Shown piece by piece: positions 38,921 through 59,135 of a stretch of 64,000 nucleotides of DNA. Below the pieces are notes generated by a model. That model searched no databases and was not told the origin of the DNA. It worked only from the letters and a program-made list of their open reading frames with translations. Position numbers and translations under genes: made by a program. The stretch is from an uncultured Phycisphaerales bacterium. Lineage in GTDB: Bacteria; Planctomycetota; Phycisphaerae; Sedimentisphaerales; Anaerobacaceae. Each line of letters opens with the position of its first letter. The stretch's first letter is position 1. The stretch is from NCBI GenBank assembly GCA_963718665.1, contig OY970359.1, positions 1,984,001-2,048,000 of the forward strand. The letters run 5' to 3'.

Positions 38921-38972
38921 CTCAGCGAAATCCGCGAAATCAGCGTCTGAAATTATAGTGTTAATCAGTGTC
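38921..38972. repeat. Right-arm-like 9-bp repeats
   Basis: ctcagcgaa-atccgcgaa-atcagcgtc and atagtgtta-atcagtgtc. Confidence 0.6.
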
Positions 38973-43300: not shown

Positions 43301-44945
43301 TGCCGACGAACGACATTAAGCTCATCACAAGCCCTTCCCGAAGGGGGTCTATCGCGGGGTTTGTAACCTGGGCGAATAACTGCTTGAAATAGTTGAACAG
43401 CAGTTTCGGTTTGTCCGACAACACCGCCAGTGGTGTGTCGTTACCCATCGAGCCGACCGGCTCCTGCCCGTTTACCGCCATCGGCGTCAAAATCATCTTC
43501 AGCTCTTCGCTGGTGTAGCCGAACGCCCGCATCTTTCGCAGCGTTTTTTCTGTGTCGCTGCTGATAAGCTCAGGAGTATCGAACAGCCCTCGCAGCTCAA
43601 TCCGGTTTTCCTCAAGCCATCGCCGGTATGGTCTGCGTCTCGCGATTTTGCTCTTTATTTCGTTGTCGGTGATTATCCGGCCTTCGACCGTATCGACTAA
43701 GAACATATTTCCCGGTCGCAACCGGCCCTTCCTGATTATCTTTTCCGGCGGGAACTCTACCACGCCCGCTTCGCTTGCTATTACCGCCAGGCCGTCGGTT
43801 GTAACTAAATACCTGCATGGTCTTAACCCATTGCGGTCCAGTGTGCCTCCTATGAACCTTCCATCGGTAAATACCATTGCCGCGGGGCCATCCCACGGCT
43901 CCATTATCGAGGAGTGATATTCGTAGAACGCACGCTTGTCGGTGCTGATGTGATATTTTGGCCCGAACGCCTCCGGTATCATCATCATCATCGCGTGCGG
44001 CATACTTCGCCCGGCACGCACTAAAAGCTCCAGTGCCGCGTCAAAACATCCCGAATCGCTCGTATCCTCAGGCAGAACAGGCAGCAGGTCGCCTATTTCG
44101 TCGCCAAATGCCTCGCTTGCCATTGTCGTTTCGCGGGCGCGCATATAATTACGGTTTCCGCTGAGCGTATTGATTTCGCCGTTATGTGCTACGCAACGAA
44201 ATGGCTGCGCCAATCGCCAATTAGGGAAAGTATTTGTGCTGTATCGCTGGTGAACTATCGCAAGGGCGGATTTAACTCGTTTGTCGGCTAGGTCCGGATA
44301 ATACGCGAACAACTGCTTCGCCATAAACATACCTTTGTAGCAGATTGTCCTGCCGGATAACGAGGTTATGTAAAAATCCTCACTCGCCTTGCCCAGTTTC
44401 TCACGCACAATCCGTTCGGCCCTGCGTCTGGCCATATAAAGCCGGCGTTCAAACAGGTCGCTCTGCGAATCTACTCCGTAAACGAATACCTGTCTTATCG
44501 ATGGCTCCGCGGCAATCGCGATTTCACCGAGGCAGTTGTTGACAGTTGGAACATTCCGCCAACCTATCACTTTCATACAGTGGTGACTAATGGCTGATTC
44601 GAGAATCTGGTCGCATTGTTTGCGGATTTCGGCGTTTTTCGAGCCGAAGACCATTCCCACTGCGTAGAATGCCGGCTCAGGCAAAGTAAAACCGAGTTGG
44701 GAGCATTCTTCCGCGAAAAACTCGTGCGGAATCTGAAACATAATACCCGCTCCGTCGCCTGTCATTTCGTCTGCGCCTGCTGCGCCGCGATGATGCAGGT
44801 TTATCAGTATTTCTTTGCCGTATTCGATTATCGAATGGTCTTTTGCTCCGTCTATGTTAACGACGGCCCCTATGCCGCAGGCATCGTGCTCACGCCGGAC
44901 TTCGTAAAGTCCCTGGTCTTTTTGTCTCATTATTTCCTTATGCAT
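40380..44945 (-). CDS. gltB: Glutamate synthase large subunit
   Basis: EHDACG, HQRYSTNTFP, EPWDGPA, QGAKPGEGGQLPG, ISPPPHHDIYSIEDL. Confidence 0.98.
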   Translation of the reverse strand: MHKEIMRQKDQGLYEVRREHDACGIGAVVNIDGAKDHSIIEYGKEILINLHHRGAAGADEMTGDGAGIMFQIPHEFFAEECSQLGFTLPEPAFYAVGMVFGSKNAEIRKQCDQILESAISHHCMKVIGWRNVPTVNNCLGEIAIAAEPSIRQVFVYGVDSQSDLFERRLYMARRRAERIVREKLGKASEDFYITSLSGRTICYKGMFMAKQLFAYYPDLADKRVKSALAIVHQRYSTNTFPNWRLAQPFRCVAHNGEINTLSGNRNYMRARETTMASEAFGDEIGDLLPVLPEDTSDSGCFDAALELLVRAGRSMPHAMMMMIPEAFGPKYHISTDKRAFYEYHSSIMEPWDGPAAMVFTDGRFIGGTLDRNGLRPCRYLVTTDGLAVIASEAGVVEFPPEKIIRKGRLRPGNMFLVDTVEGRIITDNEIKSKIARRRPYRRWLEENRIELRGLFDTPELISSDTEKTLRKMRAFGYTSEELKMILTPMAVNGQEPVGSMGNDTPLAVLSDKPKLLFNYFKQLFAQVTNPAIDPLREGLVMSLMSFVGKKQNFLEESPEHCRQLKLPHPILTNEDIERLRAVKREDFRVATIHAVFDIDEPDAGESLRKALDTLVDDAEKAIRNGVSLVIISDRNISQDKAAIPSLLATGAVHHGLLGRGLRGEAGLIIETGEPREVMHFCLLCGYGANAINPYLAFETLFELRRQGHLPAKMELTQIADNYIAAVKKGILKVMSKMGISTLRSYTGAQLFEAIGLNRDVIDKYLTGTSSRVGGIGLDEIASEAISRHKAAFEEHPAGTPALELGGEYLFRHTGERHTWNPVTVSRLQQAVRSNNPKLYGEFAQAVNEQAEKLCTLRGLFEFEPGKSVPIEEVEPASEIVKRFCTGAMSHGSISKETHECLAIAMNRIGAMSNTGEGGEDPARYTPEPNGDSKNCGIKQVASGRFGVTINYLSHAKELQIKIAQGAKPGEGGQLPGHKVTEEIARLRYSTVGVTLISPPPHHDIYSIEDLAQLIYDLKCSNPGVRVSVKLVAEVGVGTIAAGVAKANADEVLISGHDGGTGASPLSSIKHAGIPWELGLAETQQVLVMNRLRDRIRVQADGQMKTGRDVVVGALLGAERFGFGTAALVTLGCTLLRKCHEGACPFGIATQDPELRKRFRGKPEYLERYMFFVAEEVRQIMSQLGFKKFEDMIGRADRLGTNKAIEHWKSKGLDFSMIFHKPDVSDGRATRQIVSQPDKLADHLDWQIIEKAKPAIENKKHTVIEMNIRNLNRAVGTILSNRIVTKNGPEGLPDNTLEVLFNGSAGQSFGAFLAPGVTFKLTGESNDYLGKSLSGGRIAVITPAGAPFAAKENIIAGNTLLYGATSGEVFINGMAGERFAVRNSGAIAIAEGVGDHCCEYMTGGTVVVLGRTGCNFAAGMSGGIAYVLDETSNFDTLCNLDMVELESVWQKEDVKILMDLIQKHFDWTGSARAHQILSNWQDMVGKFVKVVPFDYRKSLEKMRAAEQRDTETTPATEEVFYG

Positions 44946-45113
44946 TGTCTGTCTCGCTGTATGTTTGCCGGCTCACTAATCCTTCTCGCACAAGTGAAGA
45001 ATGCACATCTTATTATACGTCCGGCGAGATTGCAAATCCTCTCTATTCGGGTAATATAACCCATAAGAGATATTGATATTACTTCCAGAATATCTTATGC
45101 TTGTTTACATAAA

Positions 45114-45172
45114 ATGGGGTGAGGCCCGACTCGTTTGGTCCCTAAGGGATTACATGAGCAGGCCTCACCCGC
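45114..45172. other. Long hairpin between glnA and gltB
   Basis: gggtgaggcc...ggcctcaccc outer stem with inner tccc-taa-ggga; possible terminator or processing stem. Confidence 0.5.
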
Positions 45173-45235
45173 AACCCAATGCCCACTGCACGACCATTCG
45201 TGCAGCTTCGCCCAAAAATGAAACTAACATCATTC

Positions 45236-45306
45236 ACCGCTGAGCACGCTGAGACCGCTGAGAAAAAACATAATTCAATCTCTGCGTGCTCCGCGTTCTC
45301 TGCGGT
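45236..45306. repeat. REP-like palindromic element made of 9-bp units (copy 4)
   Basis: ccgctgagc-acgctgaga-ccgctgaga ... ctctgcgtg-ctccgcgtt-ctctgcggt. Confidence 0.8.
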
Positions 45307-45324
45307 AAAAATTAACAGTGACTA

Positions 45325-46737
45325 CTACGCATCGTAATAGAGATGGAACTCATGCGGATGCGGTCTCAATGCTATCTCGTCTATCTCCTTTTCCCGTTTC
45401 CACTGAATCCATGTCTCGATAAGGTCTTCGGTAAAGACATCGCCCTCGGTGAGGAACTTATGGTCCTTTTCGAGCGCATTCATCGCTTCTTCGAGGGAGC
45501 CTGGCGCCTGCTTGGTTTTGGACAACTCTTCCGAGGAAAGCTCGTACACGTCCACGTCCATCGGTTTGCCGGGGTCGAGCTTGCGTTTGATGCCGTCGTT
45601 GGCTGCCATAAGCATCGCGGCGAAAGTGAGATAGCCGTTGCAGCTCGGGTCCGGGCAACGGAACTCAACGCGTTTTGCCTTCGGATTCGGTGAGTACATC
45701 GGGATACGGCAGGCGGCTGACCTGTTGCGTGCCGACATACAAAGATTTACCGGCGCCTCAAAGCCCGGAACGAGCCGGCGATATGAATTTGTAGTCGGTG
45801 CCCCGAAAGCTATGATGGCCGGAGCATGGGTGATAAGCCCGGCAATTGCGTGTAAAGCAAGGTCAGACAGACCCGCATAGCCTTTTCCGGCGAAGAGGTT
45901 GACGCCTTTCTTCCAGAGCGAGAAGTGCGTGTGCATCCCGGAACCGTTGTCCTGGAATATCGGTTTGGGCATAAACGTCGCCGTCTTGCCGTGGCGTTTG
46001 GCTACGTTCTTGACGATGTATTTATACCACATAAGCTGGTCGGCCTGTTTGACTAATGGTGCGTAAAGCATGTCAATTTCGGCCTGGCCCCCTGTTGCGA
46101 CTTCATGGTGGTGTTTCTCGACCACAATACCGACCTTCTGCATTTCCTCGACCATTTCGCCACGGATATCCTGCTGGGTGTCGGTCGGGCTTACAGGGAA
46201 ATAGCCGCCTTTATACGACGGTTTGTATCCGAGGTTGGGTTCTTCGAAACGGGCAGTGTTCCAGTTACCTTCCACCGAATCGATTGAATACATTCCGGTA
46301 TGCTGATTCTGCTCATATCGAACTTCGTCGAAGATAAAGAATTCCGGCTCAGGGCCGTAATATGCGGTATCCGCCAAACCGGTCTTTTTCGCGAATTCAG
46401 CCGCTTTCTTAGCTATATTTCGCGGGTCACGATTGTATTCTTCGCGTGTGATGGGGTCGATGATGTCCGTAAGGACGCTCACCGTCGGCTTAGCGAAGAA
46501 GGAGTCCATAACCACGGTATCCAGGTCCGGAACCGCCATCATATCCGACTGATGAATTGGTTTCCAGCCGCGGATTGATGAACCGTCGAAACCAAGCCCT
46601 TCCTCAAATGCCTTTTCATCCAGGAACTCGATTGGGAAGGTACAGTGCTGCCAGGTGCCAAGAAGATCGACGAACTTCAAGTCCGCCATCTTGGCATTGT
46701 TCTTTTTTGCAAAATCAAAGAATTCTTTTGGAGTCAT
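45325..46737 (-). CDS. glnA: Glutamine synthetase type I
   Basis: [45 protein letters not shown]; Tyr in DVDVYEL at the adenylylation-loop position. Confidence 0.97.
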
Positions 46738-46799
46738 TTTTCCACCTCTCTAATAAAATTGGGTTGCTAATATTTTTCCCGCTACGAGCGGATTGTTTT

Positions 46800-47141
46800 T
46801 TATCCTATTGCCGAATTTCCTTTTTCACCCGTTCTGATACGAATACATTCGGGCAGGTCGAGCACGAATATCTTGCCGTCGCCGATTTGCCCTGTTCTTG
46901 CGCCATCAATGACTGCTTTTATCGTCGGCTCGACAAAGGTATCGTTTACTGCTACCTCCAACTTTACCTTTCTCAATAAACTGCCCTGTTCTTTATGGCC
47001 TCGGTAGACCTCTGCTACGCCTTTTTGTCTGCCTCGGCCCACAACATTCGACACCGTTACAAGGTGGATTTCTTTTTCCTCTAATCTTTTAAGCACTTCA
47101 TCAAGTCGGTCCGGCTGAATCACAGCGATTATGTATTTCAT
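46800..47141 (-). CDS. glnK: P-II nitrogen regulator (amtB-linked)
   Basis: [32 protein letters not shown]. Confidence 0.93.
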
Positions 47142-47160
47142 TTACCTCGTCCTTTCTCGC

Positions 47161-48501
47161 TTAATCGATTAAAGTATAGGCGGCCTCTCGATGTTGTGTC
47201 AAGTCCAGGCCGACGCGTTCTTCGTGCTCACTTACTCTCAGTTTGATTACCACGTCCACAAACTTCAGAAGCACAAAACCAATTACGAAGGAGTAAACCG
47301 CCGTGACAAGCACGACCTTTAACTGAATCCATAATTGTACCGGGTTGCCGTAAAATAAACCATCGGCTCCGTCGGGATTGATTGTTTTTGTGGCCCACAG
47401 CCCCGTTGCAATCACGCCCCAGATTCCGCCGATTCCGTGAACGCCAAAGGCGTCCAGTGAGTCGTCGTAACCGAGTTTGGTTTTAAGACAGGTTACTACC
47501 AGCCACGGAAATACCCCGGCCCCTATACCGATACAGATTGCTCCGATGGGTGTGACGTATCCGGATGCCGGCGTTACAGCCGCCAGACCCGCCACCGCAC
47601 CGGTTATCATTCCCAGGGTCGTGGGTTTTTTATACCTGAGCCAGTCAAGCACGGACCACGTTACGCCCGCGACTGCGCCTGCTATATGCGTAACGGCAAA
47701 AGCGTTGCCCGCAAGTCCCGATGCCTTCAGTGCGCTGCCCGCGTTAAAGCCGAACCACCCGAACCAAAGCAATCCCGCGCCAAGCGCCGCAAACGGCAAA
47801 TTGTGCGGAGGAGATATACCGGCGGGATAACCCTGTCGTTTCCCCAGTATCAGGGCAGCCGCCAGTGCCGTCATGCCTGCGTTAATGTGAACCACTGCGC
47901 CGCCGGCAAAGTCCAGTGCGCCCATGTTCTTCAGGAAACCGCCGTTGCCCCAGAGCCAGTGCGTAATCGGGTTATACACGATTGTCGCCCAGAGCAGGAT
48001 GAAAATCACAAACGCCGAGAATTTCATTCTTTCCGCGAATGCCCCGATGATTAACGCAGGCGTTATCACCGCGAACATCATCTGGAACATCATAAACACC
48101 TCGTGCGGGATAGTTGGTGCATAAGCGGCATTTGGCGTCATACCAACGCCATTCAGAAAACTCCAGTCCAGCCCGCCTATTATGCCGTGCTTGTCCGGCC
48201 CGAACGACAAGCTGTATCCGCATACGACCCATTGGATGCTTATTATGCACAGGGCCATGAAGCACTGCATCAGGACCGACAGCATATTCTTGCGTCGGAC
48301 AAGTCCGCCGTAGAAAAACGCCAGTCCCGGCGTCATAAGCATAACAAGCGCTGCGCTTATCAATACCCATGCCGTATCACCTGTGTCGATTGTCGAATTT
48401 TGACTTGTCAAAGAACCAGCGTTAACTAACTGCTGTGTCTCACAAATCCCTGTCCCGGCAGTCAATAAAATGACCACCGCTATAGCCAGAGTTGTTCTCA
48501 T
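47161..48501 (-). CDS. amtB: Ammonium transporter (copy 1)
   Basis: LMTPGLAFFYGG, DFAGG.VVH, WFGWFGFNAGS, DDSLDAFGVHG. Confidence 0.96.
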   Translation of the reverse strand: MRTTLAIAVVILLTAGTGICETQQLVNAGSLTSQNSTIDTGDTAWVLISAALVMLMTPGLAFFYGGLVRRKNMLSVLMQCFMALCIISIQWVVCGYSLSFGPDKHGIIGGLDWSFLNGVGMTPNAAYAPTIPHEVFMMFQMMFAVITPALIIGAFAERMKFSAFVIFILLWATIVYNPITHWLWGNGGFLKNMGALDFAGGAVVHINAGMTALAAALILGKRQGYPAGISPPHNLPFAALGAGLLWFGWFGFNAGSALKASGLAGNAFAVTHIAGAVAGVTWSVLDWLRYKKPTTLGMITGAVAGLAAVTPASGYVTPIGAICIGIGAGVFPWLVVTCLKTKLGYDDSLDAFGVHGIGGIWGVIATGLWATKTINPDGADGLFYGNPVQLWIQLKVVLVTAVYSFVIGFVLLKFVDVVIKLRVSEHEERVGLDLTQHREAAYTLID

Positions 48502-48686
48502 TTCTCTTTGCTCCTTTTGTGTCGGTTCGTAATCACACCCGGCTTCTGTATGCGGTAAGCCAGAAAAAAACCGACAGCCGGCGAGCTCCGCGGGAAACTA
48601 ATCCTGCGGTTTCACACTCGTTCGGTGCTCTTAAATGAACACAAACTTCAAATTTGTTGACATACTACGGCTGCGCTCAACCTTAC

Positions 48687-48702
48687 GCAAACCTTATGCC
48701 AG
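48687..48702 (-). promoter_or_regulatory. Sigma54 -24/-12 promoter of amtB1-glnK-glnA
   Basis: CTGGCATAAGGTTTGC on minus. Confidence 0.85.
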
Positions 48703-48790
48703 CACACCTCTTAAGGGTCTTTTTTCACGTAACGTCTTGTAATAACAACAGTTATGCTCATTAAAAGCAGGGAGTTATCAAAGAGCAAAT

Positions 48791-48834
48791 TTACATTATT
48801 GTAATTTTCCAAAATATTTTTTACATTTTTGTCA
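48791..48834. promoter_or_regulatory. Paired upstream activator sites TACA-N4-TGT, 30 bp apart
   Basis: ttacattattgtaa (48791) and ttacatttttgtca (48821). Confidence 0.75.
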
Positions 48835-48852
48835 CTTTTGATGTTAAAATGG

Positions 48853-48879
48853 GGGCTCTGGCAGCCGTGCACAGAGCCC
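48853..48879 (-). terminator. 3' hairpin after PII copy 2 with CGGC apical loop
   Basis: Minus strand GGGCTCTG-T-GCA-CGGC-TGC-CAGAGCCC followed by CCATTTT. Confidence 0.6.
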
Positions 48880-48927
48880 TCTCAGGCAAGGGCGCCCTGT
48901 GGGCACCCCGTCTTTTCGTTTACCCTG

Positions 48928-49269
48928 TTACCCGATTGCCTCATTGCCTTTTTCGCCCGTTCTAATACGGATACATTCAGGCAGGTCGAGCACGAATATC
49001 TTGCCGTCGCCGATTTGTTCTGTTCTTGCGCCGCCGATGACTGCTTCGATTGCCGGCTGGACGAACGCCTCGTTCACCGCTATCTCAATTTTAACCTTTC
49101 TCAGCAAGCTGCCCTGTTCCTTGTGGCCCCGGTAAACTTCCGCTATACCTTTTTGTCTGCCCCGGCCGACAACGTTCGATACTGTGACTAAGTGAATCTC
49201 TTTTTCCGTCAGGCGTTTGAGCACTTCGTCAAGTCGGTCCGGCTGAATTACCGCGATTATGTATTTCAT
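48928..49269 (-). CDS. glnK: P-II nitrogen regulator (amtB-linked, copy 2)
   Basis: Near-identical to 46800-47141. Confidence 0.93.
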   Translation of the reverse strand: MKYIIAVIQPDRLDEVLKRLTEKEIHLVTVSNVVGRGRQKGIAEVYRGHKEQGSLLRKVKIEIAVNEAFVQPAIEAVIGGARTEQIGDGKIFVLDLPECIRIRTGEKGNEAIG

Positions 49270-49286
49270 TGGTTTATTCCTTTCTC

Positions 49287-50639
49287 TTAGTCAATAATGG
49301 TATATGCTGCTTCACGGTGTTGCGTTAAGTCCAGACCGACCCGTTCTTCGTGTTCGGTTACACGCAATTTCATTACGATATCCACAGCTTTAAGCAGCAC
49401 TATTCCAACAACAAAAGAATAAACTGCTGTAACAAGCACGGCTTTGACTTGTATCAGGAATTGAGCGGGATTCCCGTAGAGCAAACCGTCGGCCCCGGCG
49501 GGATTTACCGTTTTTGTGGCAAAGATGCCGGTTGCTATTGCTCCCCACATACCGCCTACGCCGTGGACGCCGAAGGCATCGAGCGTATCGTCATAGCCAA
49601 GCAGGTTTTTGAAATACGTCACGGCAAACCATGGAATTACCCCGGCGCCTATACCAATCCATATTGCGCCCATCGGATTGACGAATCCGGAAGCGGGAGT
49701 TATTGCTACAAGGCCGGCCACTGCGCCGGTAATCAGACCAAGCGTCGTGGGCTTTTTGTGTTTAAACCAGTCAAGAATTGCCCAGGACACGCCTGCTGCC
49801 GCGGTGGCAACATGGGTCGCGGTAAATGCGCTGACTGCCAGACCACCAGCTCCCAATGCGCTGCCGGCATTGAAGCCGAACCAGCCAAACCACAGTAACG
49901 CCGCTCCCAGCACTGCAAAGGGCAGATTATGAGGAGGAGATATTCCATTTGGATATCCTTGACGTCGGCCAAGAACAAGTGCCGCCGCAAGAGCGGTCAT
50001 ACCCGCGTTGATATGCACCACGGTTCCGCCGGCAAAATCAAGCGCGCCCCAGTTTCTTATGAATCCGCCAACTCCCCATACCCAGTGTGCAACGGGGTCA
50101 TATACGATTGTCGCCCATAACAGCATAAAAACACACAACGCCGAGAATTTCATCCGTTCCGCGAACGCGCCGACAATCAAAGCCGGCGTTATCACGGCGA
50201 ACATCATTTGGAACATCATAAATAGTTGGTGCGGAATTGTCGGTGCGTAATCGGCGTTTGGAGCAAGCCCCACGTTCTTCAGGAAAGACCAGTCAAGCCC
50301 GCCTATAAGTGAACGGTGGTCGGGGCCAAAAGACAAGCTGTAACCGAAGAGCACCCATTGCAAACTAATCAGGCACAGTATCATCAGGCATTGCATCAGT
50401 ACGGAGAGCATATTTTTACGTCGGACCAGCCCGCCGTAGAAAAACGCTAGGCCCGGTGTCATAAGCATTACAAGTGCAGTGCTTATAAGCACCCACGAGG
50501 TGTCTCCCGTGTCAATTTTCGGCACCGGAGCCGCAACTGCCGCGGTTAGCGTCGCGCTCGACGCGGGCGCTGCAGTATCACAAAATGCAGTTCCCGCACT
50601 CAGCAAGATGAGTATTGTTGATATAAGTATTCTTTTCAC
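49287..50639 (-). CDS. amtB: Ammonium transporter (copy 2)
   Basis: Same Amt motifs including both conserved His; GTG start with AAGGAG RBS. Confidence 0.96.
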   Translation of the reverse strand: MKRILISTILILLSAGTAFCDTAAPASSATLTAAVAAPVPKIDTGDTSWVLISTALVMLMTPGLAFFYGGLVRRKNMLSVLMQCLMILCLISLQWVLFGYSLSFGPDHRSLIGGLDWSFLKNVGLAPNADYAPTIPHQLFMMFQMMFAVITPALIVGAFAERMKFSALCVFMLLWATIVYDPVAHWVWGVGGFIRNWGALDFAGGTVVHINAGMTALAAALVLGRRQGYPNGISPPHNLPFAVLGAALLWFGWFGFNAGSALGAGGLAVSAFTATHVATAAAGVSWAILDWFKHKKPTTLGLITGAVAGLVAITPASGFVNPMGAIWIGIGAGVIPWFAVTYFKNLLGYDDTLDAFGVHGVGGMWGAIATGIFATKTVNPAGADGLLYGNPAQFLIQVKAVLVTAVYSFVVGIVLLKAVDIVMKLRVTEHEERVGLDLTQHREAAYTIID

Positions 50640-50683
50640 GGCTTTTTACTCCTTGTAAAAATTGATAATTAGTTGTCCACCAA

Positions 50684-50730
50684 TACGGCTGTCTATAGTA
50701 TTCTTAATTACGGCTGTCTATAGTATTCTT
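50684..50730. repeat. Exact 22-bp direct repeat (25-bp period) in the amtB2 leader
   Basis: tacggctgtctatagtattctt at 50684 and 50709. Confidence 0.9.
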
Positions 50731-50731
50731 C

Positions 50732-50747
50732 GCAAACCTTGTGCCAG
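50732..50747 (-). promoter_or_regulatory. Sigma54 -24/-12 promoter of amtB2-glnK
   Basis: CTGGCACAAGGTTTGC on minus (full TGGCAC-N5-TTGC). Confidence 0.9.
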
Positions 50748-50835
50748 AATGCCTTTTTGGTGGCCGTTTTTACATAAGGCCTTGTAAAAGCCGCGGTTAC
50801 GCTTGCTGAAAGTATTAAATTGCCAAAGAGCACAG

Positions 50836-50879
50836 TTACATTTTTGTATATCTAACTTGATATTTTTACATTTATGTCA
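50836..50879. promoter_or_regulatory. Paired upstream activator sites TACA-N4-TGT, 30 bp apart
   Basis: ttacatttttgtat (50836) and ttacatttatgtca (50866). Confidence 0.75.
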
Positions 50880-50896
50880 TTTTAGGCGTTAAAAGT

Positions 50897-50928
50897 ATGG
50901 GCTCCGCCAGCCGTGGAACGAAGCCCAT
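50897..50928 (-). terminator. 3' hairpin after PII copy 3 with CGGC apical loop
   Basis: Minus strand ATGGGCTTCG-TT-CCA-CGGC-TGG-CGGAGCCCAT followed by ACTTTT. Confidence 0.6.
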
Positions 50929-50958
50929 TTATACCAGGACGGTCCTTATGGGGTCCTG

Positions 50959-51300
50959 TTATTTTATCGCGGAGTCGCCGCGTTCTCCCGTGCGAATTCT
51001 TACGGCATCATCAACGGGCGAGATAAATATCTTGCCATCGCCTGGCTTGCCGGTAAAAGCCGTGTCTTGTATGGCCTTGACAATTTTCTCGGTATCGCTG
51101 TCTTTGACCACCACTTCGATTCTTGCCTTGGTCATCAGCCCGACTTTATAAGTTTTACCACGGACTTCCTGTTGGAGGCCTTTTTGTTTACCGTGCCCTT
51201 CGATTTCAGTAATCATAAGGCCCGGATATTCAACTTTTTCCAGAACGGCACATATTTCAGCGACCTTGGCGGGTCGAACTATAGCTTCAATTCTCTTCAT
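50959..51300 (-). CDS. P-II nitrogen regulator (divergent copy 3)
   Basis: MKRIEAIVRP, GHGKQKG..VRGKTY, TGKPGDGKIFI, VRIRTGE. Confidence 0.92.
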   Translation of the reverse strand: MKRIEAIVRPAKVAEICAVLEKVEYPGLMITEIEGHGKQKGLQQEVRGKTYKVGLMTKARIEVVVKDSDTEKIVKAIQDTAFTGKPGDGKIFISPVDDAVRIRTGERGDSAIK

Positions 51301-51366
51301 TTTTATGTTCCTTTCTTAACGGCTCTATACAAAAACCTTCAATATTCAGAGCGGTATCAATCTTTG

Positions 51367-53307
51367 CTAAATCGCAGACACGCCTTTTTCTCCGGTTCGA
51401 ATTCGCATTGCTTCCGACGCGTCCATCACAAAGATTTTTCCATCGCCGGCTTCGCCGGTGTATAAAACTTCTCTTATTATTTTCATTACGTACGGCACAT
51501 CCCACTTTTTGACTAATATATCGACCCGGTCTTTCGGAACAAAATACGTCATATTTATGTCGGAGTTCTCATCATCCACATCTATATGACCTCTTTGTCT
51601 GCCGAAACCTTTGACTTTAGTTACCGTCATTCCCATAAGAAGCTCTTCGTCTTTAAGGACCTCGGCGAGGATGTTAAGCCGTTCAGGACGGATGACGACC
51701 GATATCATCTTCAAGTCGTAGGTTTTGCTCACTGTGCCGACGGCGACGTACAGAAAGCTCGCAATGGCCCAGGCGCCGCACATATAGAAGCAAATCTTTG
51801 CCTCCGTTTTCGAATCGGCGTTGCCGATGGCATACAGGTAAATTATCGCCGCCAGCATAATGAGGTTTGCAATCACCCCGAGGACTGGAATAATCCAGTG
51901 TTTCGGGAGTTTGAAATCGGCTCTCTTTTTGAAAGCGACAATTGTCCATACACAGGTCAAACCATAGAGGACAAAAGTGCCGAAGTTCGAGGCGAGCGTA
52001 ATTCCCGTAAGACCGACTACTGAACGGACCCCTATGGCGGCGATTATGCAGGAAACAATTACCAGCGTCCACAAAGCTGTATGAGGGGTGCCGTGTTTGC
52101 TTATAAAGCTGAGGAATTTCGGTAATTCAAGGTCTTCTCCCATTCCGCAGGTGACGCGGACGGCCGTGTTCATACAGCTTAAAGTCGTGCCGATTACGGC
52201 GATTGCCACGGTTACGGCCATAGTAATCATCAGGCCAAAGCCGAGACCATGAAACAAACTGTTGCCGAGGATTTGCGCGAGGTCCCCGATAGGAGCGCTT
52301 GAGCCGGCGGCGGCAGCCATTCCGGTTACTGCTGCTGTTTGCCCGGCAGCGGTAAACGTTAGCTTTTCATTTATCATATAACCTGCGCCGAAATACTCCA
52401 GCAGATACGCAAACAATCCCTGAATTACCAAGGACAGGATAATGGCCTTTGGAATCGTGGATTTAGGGTTCTTTACCTCAGCGGCCAGGGCGGTGCAGCT
52501 TTCAAAACCGACCAGTATCAAAATAGCGAGGGTCGATTGAATCAGGACGCCGTTAAGCGTATGTGGACGGATGACGTCCCAGGCGCCGCTGAAAGACCAT
52601 GTTGTTGCCGCCTGGGGATTCGAGAAACGGTAATAAATGGCCAGGGCGGTGAAAACAACCAGGGTAACGAGCTGTATGATGTTAATCCAGATTGCGGTTA
52701 TCGTTGAGCCGGTTACGCCGCGATATGCTATGTATCCTGTGGCGAAAGCAAATACCGCGGCAATTATAACCAGCATCTCTACTGACAGCGTATTTCCGCT
52801 GAACGCCGTGTAGAGATAACCAATCAGGTTGGCCATCATAGCCACCATAACGCCTGGATATACCCAGTAGAAAAGGTGGGCGGCCCATCCGGTAACTATT
52901 TTTGACATACGGGCCAGGGAGGTAGGCGTTCCTCTTTTCAGGTTCTGGCTGTCAAGAAATGCCTTCTCCGCGAAATAGGTAACGCTTGCAAAACCCGCTT
53001 CGGGATATATCTTGGCAAGCTCCGAGTAGGAAATAGCGGTAAGAAAGCAAAGGCCTAATGCAACCACTATCCCCGACCAGATATCGCTTGCAACCGAAGC
53101 CCCGCTTGGGGAGGTGGCGGCGGCCTGGAGCTGATATGTAATCCACAGGAACGCCCCCGGGGCAATTAGCGCCATAGCGTTTGCGGTGGCGCCAAACAAG
53201 CCCAGCGTGGCTTTTATTTGGGGTTCGGCTGCTATTTTCCCGACCCCGGCGCTCGCAGTAGCCGCACCAGTTTCAATCCCATTTTCAATCGTTATGCTTG
53301 TAGACAT
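51367..53307 (-). CDS. APC-family amino acid/amine permease fused to a C-terminal P-II domain
   Basis: About 12 TMs with ANAMALIAPG and LVGFESCTALAAEVKNPK..IPKAI; last ~113 aa KMISVVIRPE..GMTVTKVKGFGRQRG..TGEAGDGKIFV..MRIRTGE in the same frame. Confidence 0.88.
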   Translation of the reverse strand: MSTSITIENGIETGAATASAGVGKIAAEPQIKATLGLFGATANAMALIAPGAFLWITYQLQAAATSPSGASVASDIWSGIVVALGLCFLTAISYSELAKIYPEAGFASVTYFAEKAFLDSQNLKRGTPTSLARMSKIVTGWAAHLFYWVYPGVMVAMMANLIGYLYTAFSGNTLSVEMLVIIAAVFAFATGYIAYRGVTGSTITAIWINIIQLVTLVVFTALAIYYRFSNPQAATTWSFSGAWDVIRPHTLNGVLIQSTLAILILVGFESCTALAAEVKNPKSTIPKAIILSLVIQGLFAYLLEYFGAGYMINEKLTFTAAGQTAAVTGMAAAAGSSAPIGDLAQILGNSLFHGLGFGLMITMAVTVAIAVIGTTLSCMNTAVRVTCGMGEDLELPKFLSFISKHGTPHTALWTLVIVSCIIAAIGVRSVVGLTGITLASNFGTFVLYGLTCVWTIVAFKKRADFKLPKHWIIPVLGVIANLIMLAAIIYLYAIGNADSKTEAKICFYMCGAWAIASFLYVAVGTVSKTYDLKMISVVIRPERLNILAEVLKDEELLMGMTVTKVKGFGRQRGHIDVDDENSDINMTYFVPKDRVDILVKKWDVPYVMKIIREVLYTGEAGDGKIFVMDASEAMRIRTGEKGVSAI

Positions 53308-53417
53308 AATTTGTTTCTCCTTTAGTAAACACTACGGATAGTCAATATTCAAAACACATCGACAATTTCCACAAATCGCATTTTTGCCTTTAATAATTCA
53401 ATCGGTTTTATTCCGTT

Positions 53418-54197
53418 TTAAAACGAAGTTGATATTCCTAATCCTGCCCAGAAGTTGTCGCTCTTGTTCGTGGCTTCCCGTATCGAGTTGCCGAGCATTG
53501 TCGAGTAGTTGAGGCTTGGTTTAATCGTCCACGTATAGACATTGAAGGGCAGTCCCGCCGTAAGCGTAAGGTCGTTTGACTGGCCGCTGTTTACGCCGAA
53601 GTAGCCCCTGTCATAAGCCGCGTTGGCCCAGCCATAGCTTGCGCCTAAAAGTAAGCCGCAATAGCAATTCTCGTTCATTACGTAAATCTTATCGAAGGTT
53701 TGCCCGATGCTGTACTGGAAATAACTGCCGTGGATTTCCTGGATGTCGCGAAACCACTTGAACGAAGGCGTCAAAGGTACTTTGGGCAAACTGAAGCCGC
53801 CGTAAATTTCAGTTGTTGGATGAAGCTCAGTGCTCGGGAACTGATAGTAAATTGTGCCAACCGAGCCGCTTAACCAATCAATACCCGGAATCGTATTGGT
53901 GTAATCGAGTGTCAAGTCGTATTCGCTGAACCCCCCGGCGTTGTCGGGGGCGGTCTTGGACCTGTTTGTCATGTCAAGGTTGCCCCAGATTGAGCCGGTA
54001 AAGCCATAGGCACTTGCGGAGATGGTTGGCTGCAGCACGCTGCTGTTGTCAACGTTCTGGCCTCGCCAGATATACTTGCTGAAGTAATCCAAGGAAACCC
54101 CATATGTAACAACCTTGTCGTCGGCTGCCGCTGTTCCCGCCGCAAATGTAATCAACGCGAGCCCCAATACAACACTACCAGTTCTTAACGACTTCAC
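53418..54197 (-). CDS. Outer-membrane beta-barrel, TorF/Gcw_chp-like putative porin
   Basis: Signal peptide, SKYIWRG, QPTI..YGF..IWG, EYDL..DY, TTEIY, C-terminal Phe (GLGISTSF). Confidence 0.75.
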   Translation of the reverse strand: MKSLRTGSVVLGLALITFAAGTAAADDKVVTYGVSLDYFSKYIWRGQNVDNSSVLQPTISASAYGFTGSIWGNLDMTNRSKTAPDNAGGFSEYDLTLDYTNTIPGIDWLSGSVGTIYYQFPSTELHPTTEIYGGFSLPKVPLTPSFKWFRDIQEIHGSYFQYSIGQTFDKIYVMNENCYCGLLLGASYGWANAAYDRGYFGVNSGQSNDLTLTAGLPFNVYTWTIKPSLNYSTMLGNSIREATNKSDNFWAGLGISTSF

Positions 54198-54276
54198 TTT
54201 TTTCTCCTTTCAAAAACCACCTAAAATAATGTTCGTTAGTTTTTCGCACAGTGGGCTTGGGCCGCATATCAGATAA

Positions 54277-54292
54277 GCAATAACTGTGCCAG
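54277..54292 (-). promoter_or_regulatory. Sigma54 -24/-12 promoter of porin-APC/PII-PII
   Basis: CTGGCACAGTTATTGC on minus. Confidence 0.9.
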
Positions 54293-54383
54293 AAACAGGA
54301 AGAGTTGCTTGCGCATTACATAACTCCTTTATTTTGCTGTCGTTACGATTGTTTTGTCGCGGGGTCTATCGTAGGGGTGATTT

Positions 54384-54427
54384 ATACAAAAATGTAAATG
54401 TGCCTAATATCGACTACAAAAATGTAG
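54384..54427. promoter_or_regulatory. Paired upstream activator sites TACA-N4-TGTA, 30 bp apart
   Basis: atacaaaaatgtaa (54384) and ctacaaaaatgtag (54414). Confidence 0.75.
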
Positions 54428-54439
54428 CCAAATGGCGTA

Positions 54440-55969
54440 TCAGGAAAGCAGTTTCGGGTAAATGGCGTACGTCTTTATTTTGTAGCCGAGGATTCGTTCG
54501 GTTAGGCCAAGCTCCTGGGCGGCCTTTCTCTGCTGGCCGCCGGATTTCTTCAGCGCGTCGATGATAAGCTCTCGCTCTTTGTTGGCGATTATCTCGGCCA
54601 AAGAGTGCCCGGCGACTTGCTCGCTCTTTTTTATCATTTGAAGCGAAGGAGGCAGATGCTCCGAGCGTATTACATCTTCATCGCAGAGCAGCACCGCTCT
54701 CTCGATGCAATTTTCCAGCTCCCTGATGTTGCCCGGCCAGTGGTAGCTCGTCAGCATTTCTATTGCAGGTGTTGAAATGCGGGTTATGTTCTTTTTGTTC
54801 TCCGCGGCGTATTTCTCAAGGAAATGGTCCGCCAACTGCATTATATCATCTTTGCGTTCTCTCAAAGGCGGCAGGTAAATCGGGAAAACGTTTACCCGGT
54901 AATACAAGTCCTCGCGGAAGATGCCTTCTTTTATCTGCTGTTCAAGGTTTTTGTTTGTGGCGACGATAATCCGAACGTTTGATTTGATTGTTTCGTTGCC
55001 GCCAAGCCGCTCGAATTCCTTGAATTGAATCACCCGCAATAATTTGATCTGCAGATTGATGGGGAAATCGCCTATTTCATCTAAGAATATAGTACCGCCG
55101 TGCGCCCTTTCGAATCTGCCTGTTTTGAGTTCCGTCGCGCCTGTAAAAGCTCCTTTTTCGTGCCCGAACAATTCGCTTTCGAGCAGTGTTTCTGGCAGGG
55201 CGGTGCAGTTGACCTTGATAAAGGGCTTTTCCGCCCTCGGGCTGTTATAGTGAATGGCGTGGGCCACGAGGTCCTTGCCTGTGCCGCTCTCGCCGCGAAT
55301 CAGAACGGTCGCGTTGCTGTCGGCCACCTGTTCGACGAGCCGGTACACCTGCTGCATTGCGTTGGAGCTTCCTACCATATTTTGAACGTTGAATCGCGTC
55401 TTTAATTCCTGTCGAAGCCGGACGTTTTCGTCGCGGAGCTGTCTTTGTTCGGATTCCACCAGCTTGTTCAGCTTTACCGCCTGGGCAATCATAGTGGAAA
55501 TGATATTGAGCAGCCGGATGTGGCTTTCAAAATCATTATTTTTTTCGGTCTGGCGGTCCACGCTGAGAGCTCCGATGGTTTTGCCTTCGAGCTTGATGGG
55601 AACACAGAAGAACGTTATCGGCCTGCCTTTTGTTGTGTCTCTTGCCCCTGTTTTGTGGACGAAGCGCGGGTCTTTGGATATATCAGGCACGATGATTTCT
55701 TTGCCGGTTTGCACAACTGTTCCGGTTATACCCTCGCCCATCCGGTATATTCCCTTTTTTTTCGACTTTTCGCTCAGGCCGTGGGCTATCTCGATATTTA
55801 TGGTTTCGGTGTCCGGGTTCAGCAGGGTGATTGTCCCGCGTTGCAGCTTCAGGTAAGTGTCCAGCGACTGCAGAATCGAGCGCAGCGTCTGCTTCAGGTC
55901 CAATGATTCCGCAAGCCCCTTTGCTATATCGCTTAAAAGCTGCACTTCCTTGGCTGGATTGGCTTTCAT
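54440..55969 (-). CDS. NifA-like sigma54-dependent activator (GAF-AAA+-HTH)
   Basis: GAF (GEGITG.V..G..P.F..FFCVPI..GALSVD), [33 protein letters not shown]-terminal HTH; no receiver domain. Confidence 0.92.
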
Positions 55970-56004
55970 TTTTGATTCCTAAACAATAACGGCTGTCGGC
56001 GGAT

Positions 56005-56033
56005 ATGATAACAAGATTGTAGGCAAAATGCAA
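56005..56033 (-). promoter_or_regulatory. Putative sigma70 promoter of the activator, with an ACA-N4-TGT site in its spacer
   Basis: TTGCAT-N17-TATCAT on minus; acaagattgt at 56011-56020. Confidence 0.6.
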
Positions 56034-56073
56034 TAAACAACAATTTCGTATTTTTGACAATCGGCGCCCATAG

Positions 56074-56109
56074 AAAAAGCGACCCCGCCTCGTGAAGAGG
56101 CGGGGTCGC
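56074..56109 (-). terminator. Rho-independent terminator of the surface-protein gene
   Basis: 13-bp perfect stem GCGACCCCGCCTC/GAGGCGGGGTCGC followed by a T-run on minus. Confidence 0.85.
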
Positions 56110-56140
56110 CTGAAAAACTTCTAATCAAGAGTTGTTACAA

Positions 56141-58645
56141 CTAAGGAGCCGGGCAATTGGCGTCAATCGTCATAGCAGCATTTGTCCAGAACGGGTTAGC
56201 GTTAGCATCGGCAACTAATACCGAAGCGCCGGTGGTGCCGCAAAGAACAGAACCAACACCAATTGGACCAGTGGCATCGCCCCAATAGTTATGCTGGGCG
56301 TTCAAAGTTGTTGATCCGATGTTGTTATAGACGGTAGCGATGGCGCCGCCCGGGGTCCGCAGGATTGTGTTACCTCTAAACAGTAAACCAGGCCAATTGA
56401 CGTCAGTGGTTCTGCCGATAGCGTCAATCGCGAGTGCGGCATCCTGGCTTCCAGCCGAGAACGTATTGCCGCTGATGGTCATGCTCTGCAGACGGTAATT
56501 GTCATTACCGTCGGTGCCGAGAGCGGGAGCGATTTCAGATACAAGAATTCCACCGCGACTGAAGGTGTTGTTGGAGATAGTCACGTTAATCAAATTGGTC
56601 TCATTAGGTCCGACCACAACAGACATGCCGTGGTCCGCAGTGTTACCGGAGATAGTTACGCTGCAGGCATCGGACTGTGCGAATTTCACGAAGTTGACAT
56701 CCGCTGTTACCACCTTGGTGAACGTGTTGTTGGTGATAGATATGTTCCTGACTGTTGCTACTGTTGTTCCGTTTGCGAATCCAGGACCAAGATAAACACC
56801 ATTAGCGTCATTCTCAAAGGTGTTATTCGCAATTGTAACCCCATTGGCAGCGTCTATTCTCACACCCATTCTCGCAATACCGACGTTGTTGAGGTCGCAG
56901 TAAGAGACCACCGTGTTATTTTGATTTGCGCCGATTAGGGCGACGGTGCCGGTAGTGGTGCTGCCCTTAATGGCGAAGCCCTGTCCTGCCGAGCCACCGA
57001 TTGTGCAGCCAGGGGAAAGGATGCTTATACCATTAGCTTCAGGAGGTACAAGTTGAATAATCGTAGAAGCAGAGCCGCTCGCCGAGTTAAGCGTAATATT
57101 GGGCTCAGGGAGACAAGGGTCTTCGTTATACGTTCCTGCCGGGATGGTAACAGTTGTAGGTGCGTAAGGAGAACCACCACGGGTGGCAACGGCGATGTTT
57201 ATCTGTGTCTGGATGGTTAGCGGAGTTGTTGCTCCTAAAGCAGCGGACCAGGCGGTTGTATTGCTACAGGCATCTTCTGCCTGGACCTGGTAGCTATATG
57301 TGTTATTTTGAGTGCAATTTCCATCCGTGAAGTTTCCATCGGCGAGCCAACCCCTGCACACAACTAATCCACCTGTGCTGTACCGGAATCGATACATGAC
57401 ACCACAAGGATCGGTCGCGTGTGCCTGCATAGTAATTGAGGTGGGGCTTGTGGCATAAGGGGGTATCGAGAAAACCAGCCCTGCCGGTGGGGTTGTATCC
57501 ACTAGAGTAGTTGCGTTTGCCTCGACTGATGCAGCCGTTACATTCGGCACCAAAGCGTCATCCCGGGCCATTACATTGTAGTCATACCTCTTACTAGGAG
57601 TAAGGTTGCTGTCTACGTAGGTCGGTGTGAGTATCCAGCCGCTGTTGTGATTATTGGGATCCTGCATATTTGTAAAGTAGTACTGTACAGGAGGAGCGTT
57701 GGGCTCAGTTGCGGTTGTCGCGGTCATTGTAATTTGAGTGCTACTTATCGCCGCAGGTACACTTGCCCACGTCATTGGATTTGGAGTAGGCGAGGTGGTG
57801 GTCGCTGTTTTGTTGGTTCTTGCGGTTGCACTGGCTGATGGGTCGGTTAAATTCGGCACAGCCGCGCTATCCTCGGCCGTTACAGTGTATGTGTAATTAG
57901 TATCAGGAGTAAGGCCGCTGTCTGTCCAGGTCGCAGAGGTTATCCAGCCGCTGTTGTGACTGGTATTGGTACTATTTACAAAGGAGTATTGTACAGGAGG
58001 AGAGGCAGCATCGGTTGCGGTTGTTGCGGTCATTGTAATTTGAGTGTCGCTTAGTGCCGCAGGTACACTTGCCCACGTCATTGGGTTTGGTGTAGGTGGA
58101 GTGGTATCTGCGATAACGGTGTATTTTGTCAGAGACTCGGAGATGTCATTAACGGCATCGGGAACATCCTTGCCCGCTTCAGATTTCGTCCACTTAGGGT
58201 CCAATGTCGCAGTCATAGCGCCAAAGCCCAATTCGCCGACAAGTATGGAGCCGTTCAGGGTTTTCGCGACAGTTTTACCGGTGAGACCAACAGCTCCTCC
58301 ATCAGCAGTTTTTCCAGCCAGCACTGCTTCGTTATTGCCGCTCACATAATGAGCAACTAAGTAGCCGGTCTCGGAAGTAAAATCAAACGTTACGTTTACT
58401 GTTGTTTGCGTTTTATCCGCGGCCTTAACACCCTGATAGGTCAACTGTTGTGCATCGCAGACGTCTTGAGTATCAGTGACAACGAGCACTAAGTAGCCGT
58501 TCAGTGTTTGCGCCACAATTGCGCCGCTGCTAAAATCCGAGGTCTTTTGGGTAGTTTTGTAAACAAGAGTGTTGTTGCCATAACTGGGGACACACATCAT
58601 CGCCACAAAAACTGCCACAAAAACTAATACTAACAACTTTCTCAT
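56141..58645 (-). CDS. Large secreted/surface protein: three FN3-like repeats and a right-handed beta-helix region
   Basis: Signal peptide MRKLLVLVFVAVF with AAGGAG RBS; repeated PTPNPMTWASVP..ITMTATTAT..VQY.F..SGW..D..LTP; repeated I.NNTF/ISGNTF and NAQHNYWG. Confidence 0.8.
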   Translation of the reverse strand: MRKLLVLVFVAVFVAMMCVPSYGNNTLVYKTTQKTSDFSSGAIVAQTLNGYLVLVVTDTQDVCDAQQLTYQGVKAADKTQTTVNVTFDFTSETGYLVAHYVSGNNEAVLAGKTADGGAVGLTGKTVAKTLNGSILVGELGFGAMTATLDPKWTKSEAGKDVPDAVNDISESLTKYTVIADTTPPTPNPMTWASVPAALSDTQITMTATTATDAASPPVQYSFVNSTNTSHNSGWITSATWTDSGLTPDTNYTYTVTAEDSAAVPNLTDPSASATARTNKTATTTSPTPNPMTWASVPAAISSTQITMTATTATEPNAPPVQYYFTNMQDPNNHNSGWILTPTYVDSNLTPSKRYDYNVMARDDALVPNVTAASVEANATTLVDTTPPAGLVFSIPPYATSPTSITMQAHATDPCGVMYRFRYSTGGLVVCRGWLADGNFTDGNCTQNNTYSYQVQAEDACSNTTAWSAALGATTPLTIQTQINIAVATRGGSPYAPTTVTIPAGTYNEDPCLPEPNITLNSASGSASTIIQLVPPEANGISILSPGCTIGGSAGQGFAIKGSTTTGTVALIGANQNNTVVSYCDLNNVGIARMGVRIDAANGVTIANNTFENDANGVYLGPGFANGTTVATVRNISITNNTFTKVVTADVNFVKFAQSDACSVTISGNTADHGMSVVVGPNETNLINVTISNNTFSRGGILVSEIAPALGTDGNDNYRLQSMTISGNTFSAGSQDAALAIDAIGRTTDVNWPGLLFRGNTILRTPGGAIATVYNNIGSTTLNAQHNYWGDATGPIGVGSVLCGTTGASVLVADANANPFWTNAAMTIDANCPAP

Positions 58646-59135
58646 CTTAATTCTCCTTTCGAATAACTTTTCCATCTTGAATACGTTTTTAATTCCTAAA
58701 ATATCCTCTTCGAATTTCTAATGGCCGTCTAATGGCTTTTCCATCCGCAAATCTCCTTTCTTATAACACCTTTAATACCTTCCCATCCTTTATTTCCTTT
58801 TTGCGTATAATAACCTTTTTCCGCCGACCGAAAAAAGGAAATTATACGCAAACATTTATATCCACAATATAAGAGTTATTCTCCAATCTTAATCACAACC
58901 CTAACTTGTTGTGCAATTTCAAAGGAAACGCCCTTATCAGTATTATCACCTTGTCTATAAAACTTCTTCGCGGTATATAATGACCGAGCTTTACGGCACA
59001 ATCAACAAAATTTTATTATTTTTTTGCAAAATTTTCAAAAGCGCCTATACTTTGTCTCAGCGTTCTTAAAACAAAGCATAAAGCTCGTTGATTGAAACCT
59101 AATTTAAAACCGGTTAATTATCAAGGAATATTTTT

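Follow-up and report, generated by a model that had tools for sequence, protein, structure and literature searches.

A compact group of nitrogen-assimilation genes lies in a 64,000-nt stretch of contig OY970359.1, from the genome of an uncultured Phycisphaerales bacterium (genome G000). The stretch is referred to here as the window; positions are those of the window unless genome coordinates are named, and all of the listed window features lie on the minus strand. The group comprises genes for ammonium transport, PII signalling and glutamine synthesis, three sigma54 promoters that are each preceded by two palindromic sites with an ACA-N4-TGT core, and, beside them, a gene for an enhancer-binding protein with GAF, AAA+ and helix-turn-helix (HTH) domains that bears a degenerate pair of such sites over its own promoter. 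Comparative sequence analysis argues that this neighbouring GAF activator runs a sigma54-dependent nitrogen regulon and limits its own synthesis, a reading to which we assign a probability of about 85%.

The nitrogen locus

Pfam and NCBIfam assign to the locus a GAF-AAA+-HTH protein, a permease of the APC family fused to a PII domain, three free PII proteins, two Amt ammonium transporters and a type I glutamine synthetase, and place the large subunit of glutamate synthase immediately downstream of glnA. G000 has four PII domains and two Amt genes, every one of them in this locus, the genes of which are as follows.

54440-55969, minus strand: GAF-AAA+-HTH sigma54 activator of 509 aa with an intact GAFTGA and without a receiver domain, scoring above the NifA hidden Markov model cut-off
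53418-54197, minus strand: putative outer-membrane porin, TorF/Gcw_chp-like by embedding only, with no match in Pfam or NCBIfam
51367-53307, minus strand: APC-family permease with a fused, degenerate C-terminal PII domain (family scan)
50959-51300, minus strand: free PII protein, the sole PII of the window with Tyr51 (family scan, residue comparison)
49287-50639, minus strand: ammonium transporter gene amtB2 (Pfam/NCBIfam)
48928-49269, minus strand: GlnK-type PII after amtB2; Glu at position 51, Gln39 and Lys58 kept
47161-48501, minus strand: ammonium transporter gene amtB1, product 75% identical to that of amtB2 (Pfam/NCBIfam)
46800-47141, minus strand: GlnK-type PII after amtB1; Glu at position 51
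45325-46737, minus strand: type I glutamine synthetase gene glnA (Pfam/NCBIfam)
38972-44945, minus strand: glutamate synthase, large subunit by family scan and presumed small subunit (38972-40387)

Sigma54 promoters and paired operators

Three -24/-12 elements of the form TGGCA(C/T)-N5-TTGC precede the porin gene, amtB2 and amtB1, and are accompanied by the following sites, which were identified from the sequence.

54415-54426, minus strand: distal site of the porin promoter, TACA-N4-TGTA
54385-54396, minus strand: proximal site of the porin promoter
54321-54333, minus strand: weak IHF-like site between enhancer and promoter 1, with one mismatch to the consensus
54277-54291, minus strand: sigma54 promoter 1 (porin)
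50867-50877, minus strand: distal site of the amtB2 promoter
50837-50848, minus strand: proximal site of the amtB2 promoter
50732-50746, minus strand: sigma54 promoter 2 (amtB2)
48822-48832, minus strand: distal site of the amtB1 promoter
48792-48803, minus strand: proximal site of the amtB1 promoter
48687-48701, minus strand: sigma54 promoter 3 (amtB1)

The three minus-strand promoters and their paired palindromes all lie where the original prediction had put them, and the ACA-N4-TGT cores of each pair are exactly 30 bp apart (54425/54395, 50877/50847 and 48832/48802). The outer bases held only in part, the distal sites of both amtB promoters reading GACA-N4-TGTA and not TACA. The predicted offsets of 94, 91 and 91 bp are reproduced if the count starts at the nearer edge of the 12-bp proximal site and stops at the T of TGG, and become 104, 101 and 101 bp when counted from the ACA. 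The canonical operator of NifA is TGT-N10-ACA, and no such sequence was found before the three sigma54 promoters or in the activator's upstream region (four regions scanned).

Single ACA-N4-TGT sequences are common in G000 (457), while the exact pair with a gap of 18-22 occurs three times, always in the window locus. When the gap is loosened to 17-23, the reversed pattern gives two matches against three for the true pattern, so that counting across the genome is weak evidence by itself and it is placement that carries the strength. In scans with matrices trained on the sites of relatives, in which a score of at least 11 bits defined a sigma54-like site, a phased pair accompanied 3 of the 158 sigma54-like sites of the genome, all three in the window locus, and the four best pairs genome-wide were the three promoter pairs and the pair before the activator gene. 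The regulon therefore appears to be confined to the window locus, and its description as self-contained was upheld by this search for paired sites near sigma54 boxes. Single sites of 19 bits at genome positions 820361 and 822824 were rejected as members, being solitary, set inside longer inverted repeats and lacking a phased sigma54 promoter. The two long inverted repeats in question, which have an operator-like core, flank a sensor kinase-response regulator pair (G000:C1:820330-822870); they resemble a CusR/CopR-type box and are presumably that regulator's own.

The promoter of the activator gene

A degenerate pair overlapping the putative sigma70 promoter of the activator gene had also been predicted, and is present (56049-56040 and 56020-56011, 29 bp apart). 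Its proximal member occupies the 17 nt that separate TTGCAT (56033-56028) from the extended -10 element, and its distal member stands directly above the -35 element.

56077-56111, minus strand: hairpin of 15 pairs with a T tail, resembling an intrinsic terminator, which ends the upstream gene and shields the activator promoter (sequence)
56040-56049, minus strand: distal self-regulation site of degenerate form (ACG-N4-TGT), adjoining the putative -35 element on its upstream side (sequence, matrix scan)
56028-56033, minus strand: putative sigma70 -35 element TTGCAT, 17 nt from the -10 element; TTG kept in 51 of 66 relatives
56011-56020, minus strand: proximal self-regulation site within the -35/-10 spacer, supplying the TG of an extended -10 element (sequence)
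56005-56010, minus strand: putative sigma70 -10 element TATCAT; TAnnnT kept in 51 of 66 relatives

An operator that covers the -35/-10 region has the geometry of a repressor site. The arrangement recurs in relatives, with a pair preceding the activator start in 72 of 80 loci (L088-L167) and a spacing of 29 bp in 60 of them. By way of the covering pair, the activator thus likely keeps its own sigma70 promoter repressed; of the self-repression claimed originally, the operator geometry and its retention in relatives are observed, and the repression itself is deduced from them.

Conservation across relatives

Presence and absence were counted in 61 genomes of the order, and relatives' labels are mostly Sedimentisphaerales or Phycisphaerae; later analyses excluded the unpublished genome G258 (locus L186), and nothing claimed here depends on it. 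Operator pairs were counted at loci L031-L087 with one mismatch allowed and a separation of 29-31 bp, at promoters selected for a match to a sigma54 pattern close to target genes. An activator homologue is found in 53 of the 61 genomes, and 49 of 52 sigma54 promoters before homologues of the porin, amt and glnA genes carry the pair, compared with one for the reversed motif and a mean of 0.43 (maximum 2) over 30 shuffles. The distances from the proximal site to the box cluster at 79-80, 88-93, 98-104 and 111-112 bp, that is, in whole helical turns (R 0.65-0.68), and the consensus of 83 exact sites is CTACA-W4-TGTAG.

The activator adjoins its presumed targets in tandem or in divergent arrangement among these relatives. 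Where it is unlinked, pairs are still found before amt operons (L070, L071, L073, L074, L076 and L079) and before the activator gene (L043, L044 and L066), and at L036 and L040 a type III glutamine synthetase takes the place of glnA behind a similar promoter. Eight genomes gave no activator match, and in six of them no Amt scored over the cut-off either, a pattern of co-loss. A search for glnA in five of these six found a distant type in three and none in two, and the distant type has neither a sigma54 box nor a pair upstream.

Activators 77-87% identical to that of the window, with operators and targets, occur at L101 and L104 (labelled Calditrichia/Calditrichota) and at L130 (delta proteobacterium), L101 and L130 being long contigs. 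The module has likely moved by horizontal transfer, since the Calditrichia proteins nest beside the window protein in the tree.

The activator protein and its family

The protein has the features of a sigma54 enhancer-binding protein (PF00158 with an E value of 1e-73, PF02954, and GAFTGA in the translation), and rpoN is present in G000 along with the -24/-12 promoters. It scores 554.7 bits against TIGR01817 (NifA), above the cut-off of 528.85, and 356.8 bits against TIGR01818 (NtrC), below the cut-off of 558.6, with a GAF domain in place of the receiver. By sequence, the GAF domain best matches Aquifex Nlh1 among solved structures (104 bits, E 7e-29), with two NifA entries at 66 and 60 bits. 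Its model, with a predicted local distance difference test (pLDDT) score of 90, has the fold of the Nlh2, NifA and Nlh1 GAF domains, Nlh2 and one NifA GAF matching slightly better than Nlh1. The recognition helix reads TERILGYK, compared with TPRQIAYR in proteobacterial NifA. In the comparison with NifA by phylogeny, two trees (49 rows in a quick IQ-TREE run, 119 rows in FastTree) set the activator clade apart from proteobacterial NifA, their deep forks being weakly resolved.

Judged by its predicted targets, its operator and its place in the trees, the activator is thus not a NifA, and it is predicted to act like NtrC yet is no NtrC. Comparison supports the claim of a receiver-less GAF-AAA-HTH activator with an operator other than TGT-N10-ACA. 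The accompanying label of NifA-like fits the cut-off and the domain layout; it does not fit the separate clade, the missing TGT-N10-ACA and the lack of nif genes in the searches.

A related activator is found beside nitrogenase genes in fixing relatives. nifH occurs in 20 of 301 genomes of the order (loci L201-L220), and nine of these 20 loci have a related activator no more than 1.5 kb away from it. Among the 18 nifH loci with a sigma54 box, an altered sequence, ACA-W4-TTTC, stands on the sense strand in 13 (shuffle mean 0.23, opposite strand 1) and forms pairs 29-31 bp apart in nine, the sites lying 210-340 bp before the boxes; TGT-N10-ACA occurs no more often than by chance (2 of 18). The tree covered three paralogues of nitrogen-fixing genomes; these join the amt regulators of divergent arrangement with a support of 100, and they carry operator pairs before their own genes. 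Together, these observations suggest that the nif activator was recruited locally from the activator family, with one half-site altered. A broader version, with odds somewhat short of even, is that the family serves as a stock from which 'NifA' proteins have been recruited repeatedly, one GAF protein constituting the whole transcriptional nitrogen control of the order, with no need of NtrC, GlnD or a uridylylatable GlnK, and the fixers having duplicated an amt regulator of the family, set the copy beside nifH and changed a half-site. A literature search at the level of listings found neither the ACA-W4-TTTC nif variant nor local recruitment in print.

The two nitrogen-fixer paralogues tested fall below the NifA cut-off, and the window activator passes it in a genome where no nif genes were found, so that the label misleads in both directions. 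It follows that 'nifA' in metagenomes is no marker of nitrogen fixation.

Other nitrogen regulators and the signal

Searches of G000 gave no match to nifD/nifK (PF00148), no nifH over the cut-off, and neither glnD nor glnE; glnD was likewise found in none of the 61 genomes. Four enhancer-binding proteins are encoded (the window activator, two with receiver-like N-termini and one that is short), none scoring above the NtrC cut-off, and no nitrogen genes lie near the other three. The earlier statement that nif genes, NtrC and GlnD are lacking is thus matched by the genome search, which found none of them. The proposal that a receiver-less activator does the work of NtrBC draws on the sites, the targets, their conservation and the failure to find NtrC, and stands as a predicted role.

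Tyr51 is present in none of 48 GlnK-type proteins from the loci of relatives, where position 51 is E, F, V, M or I, while Lys58 is invariant and Gln39 nearly so, a conservation that fits effector binding. With GlnD not found and no Tyr51 in GlnK, uridylylation as in enterobacteria is an unlikely route. 2-Oxoglutarate, which binds NifA of Azotobacter vinelandii in its GAF domain (PMC12998190), is the somewhat favoured signal, whether read directly by the GAF domain or through unmodified GlnK, the two routes being taken jointly.

Other features of the locus

The glutamate synthase genes have no operator pair of their own in the matrix scan, and the gap of 380 bp that separates them from glnA (44946-45324) holds an inverted repeat recognised by eye and lacks an operator pair; the genes might be reached by read-through from glnA or be controlled separately. 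In the permease-PII fusion (51367-53307, minus strand), the positions of Gln39 and Lys58 are changed in the PII domain, and the Tyr51 PII gene (50959-51300) comes next. An Atlas cluster of 80 consists of the same fusion, and the next cluster is automatically named dimethylamine permease. The unit may be a carrier of amines or ammonium that a mixed PII trimer gates; the fusion and the Tyr51 PII are found in only three of loci L031-L087 (L035, L037 and L049).

The leader of amtB1 is about 170 nt long (48502-48675, minus strand) and includes a small hairpin with a T run at 48582-48570; an Rfam scan of 40000-60000 gave no match up to E 1, and thus no known riboswitch in this leader. A direct duplication of 20 bp with a period of 25 bp lies right behind the amtB2 sigma54 box (50685-50729, minus strand). 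CAGCCGT starts at the predicted +3 to +5 of three promoters (55989-55995, 50710-50716 and 48667-48673, minus strand). CAGCCG was rejected as a general element, with 62 sense and 84 antisense occurrences genome-wide (no enrichment) and presence in 8 of 53 promoter rows of relatives, one of them duplicated. Nine RNA runs, all in the form of contigs, contain small shares; in four that were compared at 88% likeness, contigs from relatives touch all of the target genes and are silent on start, strand and level of transcription. Elsewhere in the window, 56141-58675 (minus strand) encodes a secreted-looking repeat protein of 844 aa and 62918-63721 (minus strand) a protein of 267 aa without a Pfam match.

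Proposed mechanism and its alternatives

In the proposed mechanism, dimers of the activator would bind the paired TACA-W4-TGTA sites approximately 100 and 130 bp upstream of the three sigma54 promoters, where two dimers three helical turns apart could seed the AAA+ ring, which would then contact sigma54 by looping, perhaps with the help of HU/IHF, for which G000 has one gene. Scarcity of fixed nitrogen would thereby activate the porin/permease/PII, amtB2-glnK and amtB1-glnK-glnA units, while the activator would shut down its own sigma70 promoter via the covering pair. The GAF domain would hold the ATPase off until the state of nitrogen starvation is relayed, which is the least certain step. 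Binding, ring seeding, looping, induction under nitrogen limitation and self-repression are inferred from sequence.

Several observations weigh against this reading. The 2.61-Mb genome is 94.6% complete, and absences from it are to be read as 'not found'. The promoters of amtB1 and amtB2 are duplicates with 69% identity across about 170 bp, and that of the porin gene shares 49% identity with either of them, so that the window offers about two independent activating promoters and not three; among relatives, the promoters are kin and were chosen by pattern, so that the counts overstate independence. Some amt operons have no exact pair (L069, L072, L077 and L078), and L070 and L073 have a pair and no pattern-matching sigma54 box. 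The pair is retained in two genomes of the same genus with no activator match (G012 and G021), the contigs of which end where the activator would lie, and in the closed genome G054, where the activator has an internal stop (C1:1317195-1317920) and the pair before amtB is kept. The HTH region differs among subfamilies that have a common motif, the activator's sigma70 promoter scores 8 of 12 and is not listed by a consensus promoter scan, and the IHF-like signal is weak (20 of 52 promoters; shuffle mean 10.4, maximum 19).

An origin of the arrangement as an artefact, from duplicated promoters and AT-rich intergenic sequence, would suit the likeness of the two amtB promoters, the abundance of single sites and the reversed pair pattern, which occurs 0-3 times per genome. 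This account is already largely refuted by the control comparison of 0.43 and 1 with 49 of 52; the spacing also remains fixed at 29-31 bp while the intervening DNA varies, the distances shift in helical steps, and the pair is carried in addition by a sigma70-type promoter of different origin, which together bring its probability close to nil. It is highly improbable, too, that the protein is a genuine NifA that outlasted the nif genes, with the sites as relics or secondary targets. The TIGR01817 cut-off is indeed passed; against this, the homologue is found in 53 of 61 genomes and nifH in only 3 of 61, nitrogen-fixing relatives use a separate paralogue beside nifH, TGT-N10-ACA was not found before the three promoters, and the trees set the activator apart from proteobacterial NifA. 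An unrecognised NtrC of the receiver type, or an OmpR-type regulator, might instead read the palindromes, with the GAF protein as a co-regulated passenger, and both the two 19-bit intergenic sites around an unrelated kinase-regulator pair and the non-uniform recognition helix of the motif-sharing subfamilies could be cited in its favour. These sites are, however, the single ones within longer inverted repeats and without a phased sigma54 promoter; sigma54 promoters require an AAA+ activator, both receiver-type proteins score below the NtrC cut-off and lie away from nitrogen genes, and the pairs track the GAF gene when it is moved or reoriented, which leaves another factor unlikely.

The remaining alternative touches the signal step alone and overlaps with regulation by the GAF activator. 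The wiring would be the same, with redox state, glutamine, ammonium or an amine transported by the APC permease as the cue for the GAF domain, or with the Tyr51 PII or the permease-fused PII sequestering the activator. In its favour, the GAF domain is much nearer to Aquifex Nlh1 (104 bits) than to the NifA entries (66 and 60), the ligand of Nlh1 being described as unknown in a review (PMC9866876), and the T-loop of GlnK varies at position 51 while the activator stays conserved. Conversely, with the permease-PII fusion and the Tyr51 PII present in only three of loci L031-L087, neither can serve as a general sensor, and the retention of Lys58 and Gln39 in GlnK, given the roles ascribed to these residues, fits effector binding. 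Another signal is thus a tentative possibility, roughly one chance in three.

Regulation by the GAF activator would constitute a minimal nitrogen-control circuit in a lineage in which no NtrBC/GlnD cascade was detected. The compact locus, sharp operator and fixed geometry make it a clean substrate for bench work on a regulon that has so far been predicted, and suit it equally to a search for the ligand of Nlh1-type GAF domains.

Comparison with known systems

Enterobacterial NtrB/NtrC, which controls glnAp2 and glnK-amtB, has similar targets, tandem enhancers about 100-140 bp upstream of a sigma54 promoter, and repression of a sigma70 promoter via overlapping sites. The window system differs in its operator and in having no receiver domain, GlnD and GlnE were not found, and its GlnK lacks Tyr51. 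Proteobacterial NifA has the same GAF-AAA+-HTH layout and GAFTGA, and the window protein differs from it in operator, recognition helix and clade, and in that no nif genes were found. Nlh1 of Aquifex (PDB 4G3K/4G3W) is the best sequence match for the activator's GAF domain and has the same fold (about 32% identity in the structural alignment); a review describes it as NifA-like and as speculated to control assimilation rather than fixation, with an unknown ligand (PMC9866876). A 'NifA-like' precedent in Nitrospira was set aside, as it concerns nxrAB and not amtB (PMC6606698).

The closest regulon described is the predicted one of DVU1949 in Desulfovibrio (Desulfovibrionales), which by its description has a single-component sigma54 activator, an ACA-W4-TGT core (by eye), nitrogen operons and the activator's own gene among its targets. 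The target locus tags correspond to amt-glnB, glnA and glt genes. Kazakov et al. (2015) describe DVU1949 as a single-component activator of nine predicted operons of nitrogen metabolism and transport, its own included (PMC4641369). The implied novelty of the window regulon is therefore not supported, given that the same core motif and a single-component nitrogen regulon were predicted for Desulfovibrio in 2015 (PMC4641369); concept and motif are already in print, which limits the surprise. The sites of DVU1949 are 16 bp long, and in the first 30 of the 56 supplement rows viewed (26 lie beyond these) nine have an exact ACA-N4-TGT and 25 have CA-N4-TG, as counted by eye (PMC4641369). They are more degenerate than those of the window's order, and the distance between neighbours is often 32 or 41-42 bp rather than 29-31. 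In D. vulgaris a response regulator (DVU3220) is assigned to the same amt operon as well, whereas in the window one protein seems to act alone on a regulon of one locus. The regulons of DVU1949 and DVUA0143 are predictions, the only gel shift mentioned in the parts of the article used here being for DVU2956 (PMC4641369), and a literature search found no other paper naming DVU1949.

DVUA0143 is a predicted nif regulator on a plasmid of D. vulgaris, with 14-bp sites of the form C(T/G)ACA-W4-TGT(A/C)G, 12 of 22 rows having an exact ACA-N4-TGT (PMC4641369). It is probably WP_011176720.1, which gave the top-ranked plasmid matches to the activator (44%) and groups with the NifA-side sequences, on a long branch, and not with the window clade. 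Labels in additional file 2 of the same article appear shifted, the DNA-binding-domain row labelled DVU1949 being equal to the C-terminus of this plasmid protein (PMC4641369), and that row was dropped as a match. The DVUA0143 sites listed match the consensus of the window family, one being identical to the distal porin site, yet their targets are nitrogenase operons and their pairs are 18-23 bp apart, unlike those of the window. Desulfovibrio thus has a parallel pair of regulators, DVU1949 for nitrogen and DVUA0143 for nif, as with the amt and nif paralogues described here, and the spacing of the pairs (29-31, 32 or 41-42, and 18-23 bp) may be what lets related activators with the same core motif tell their targets apart.

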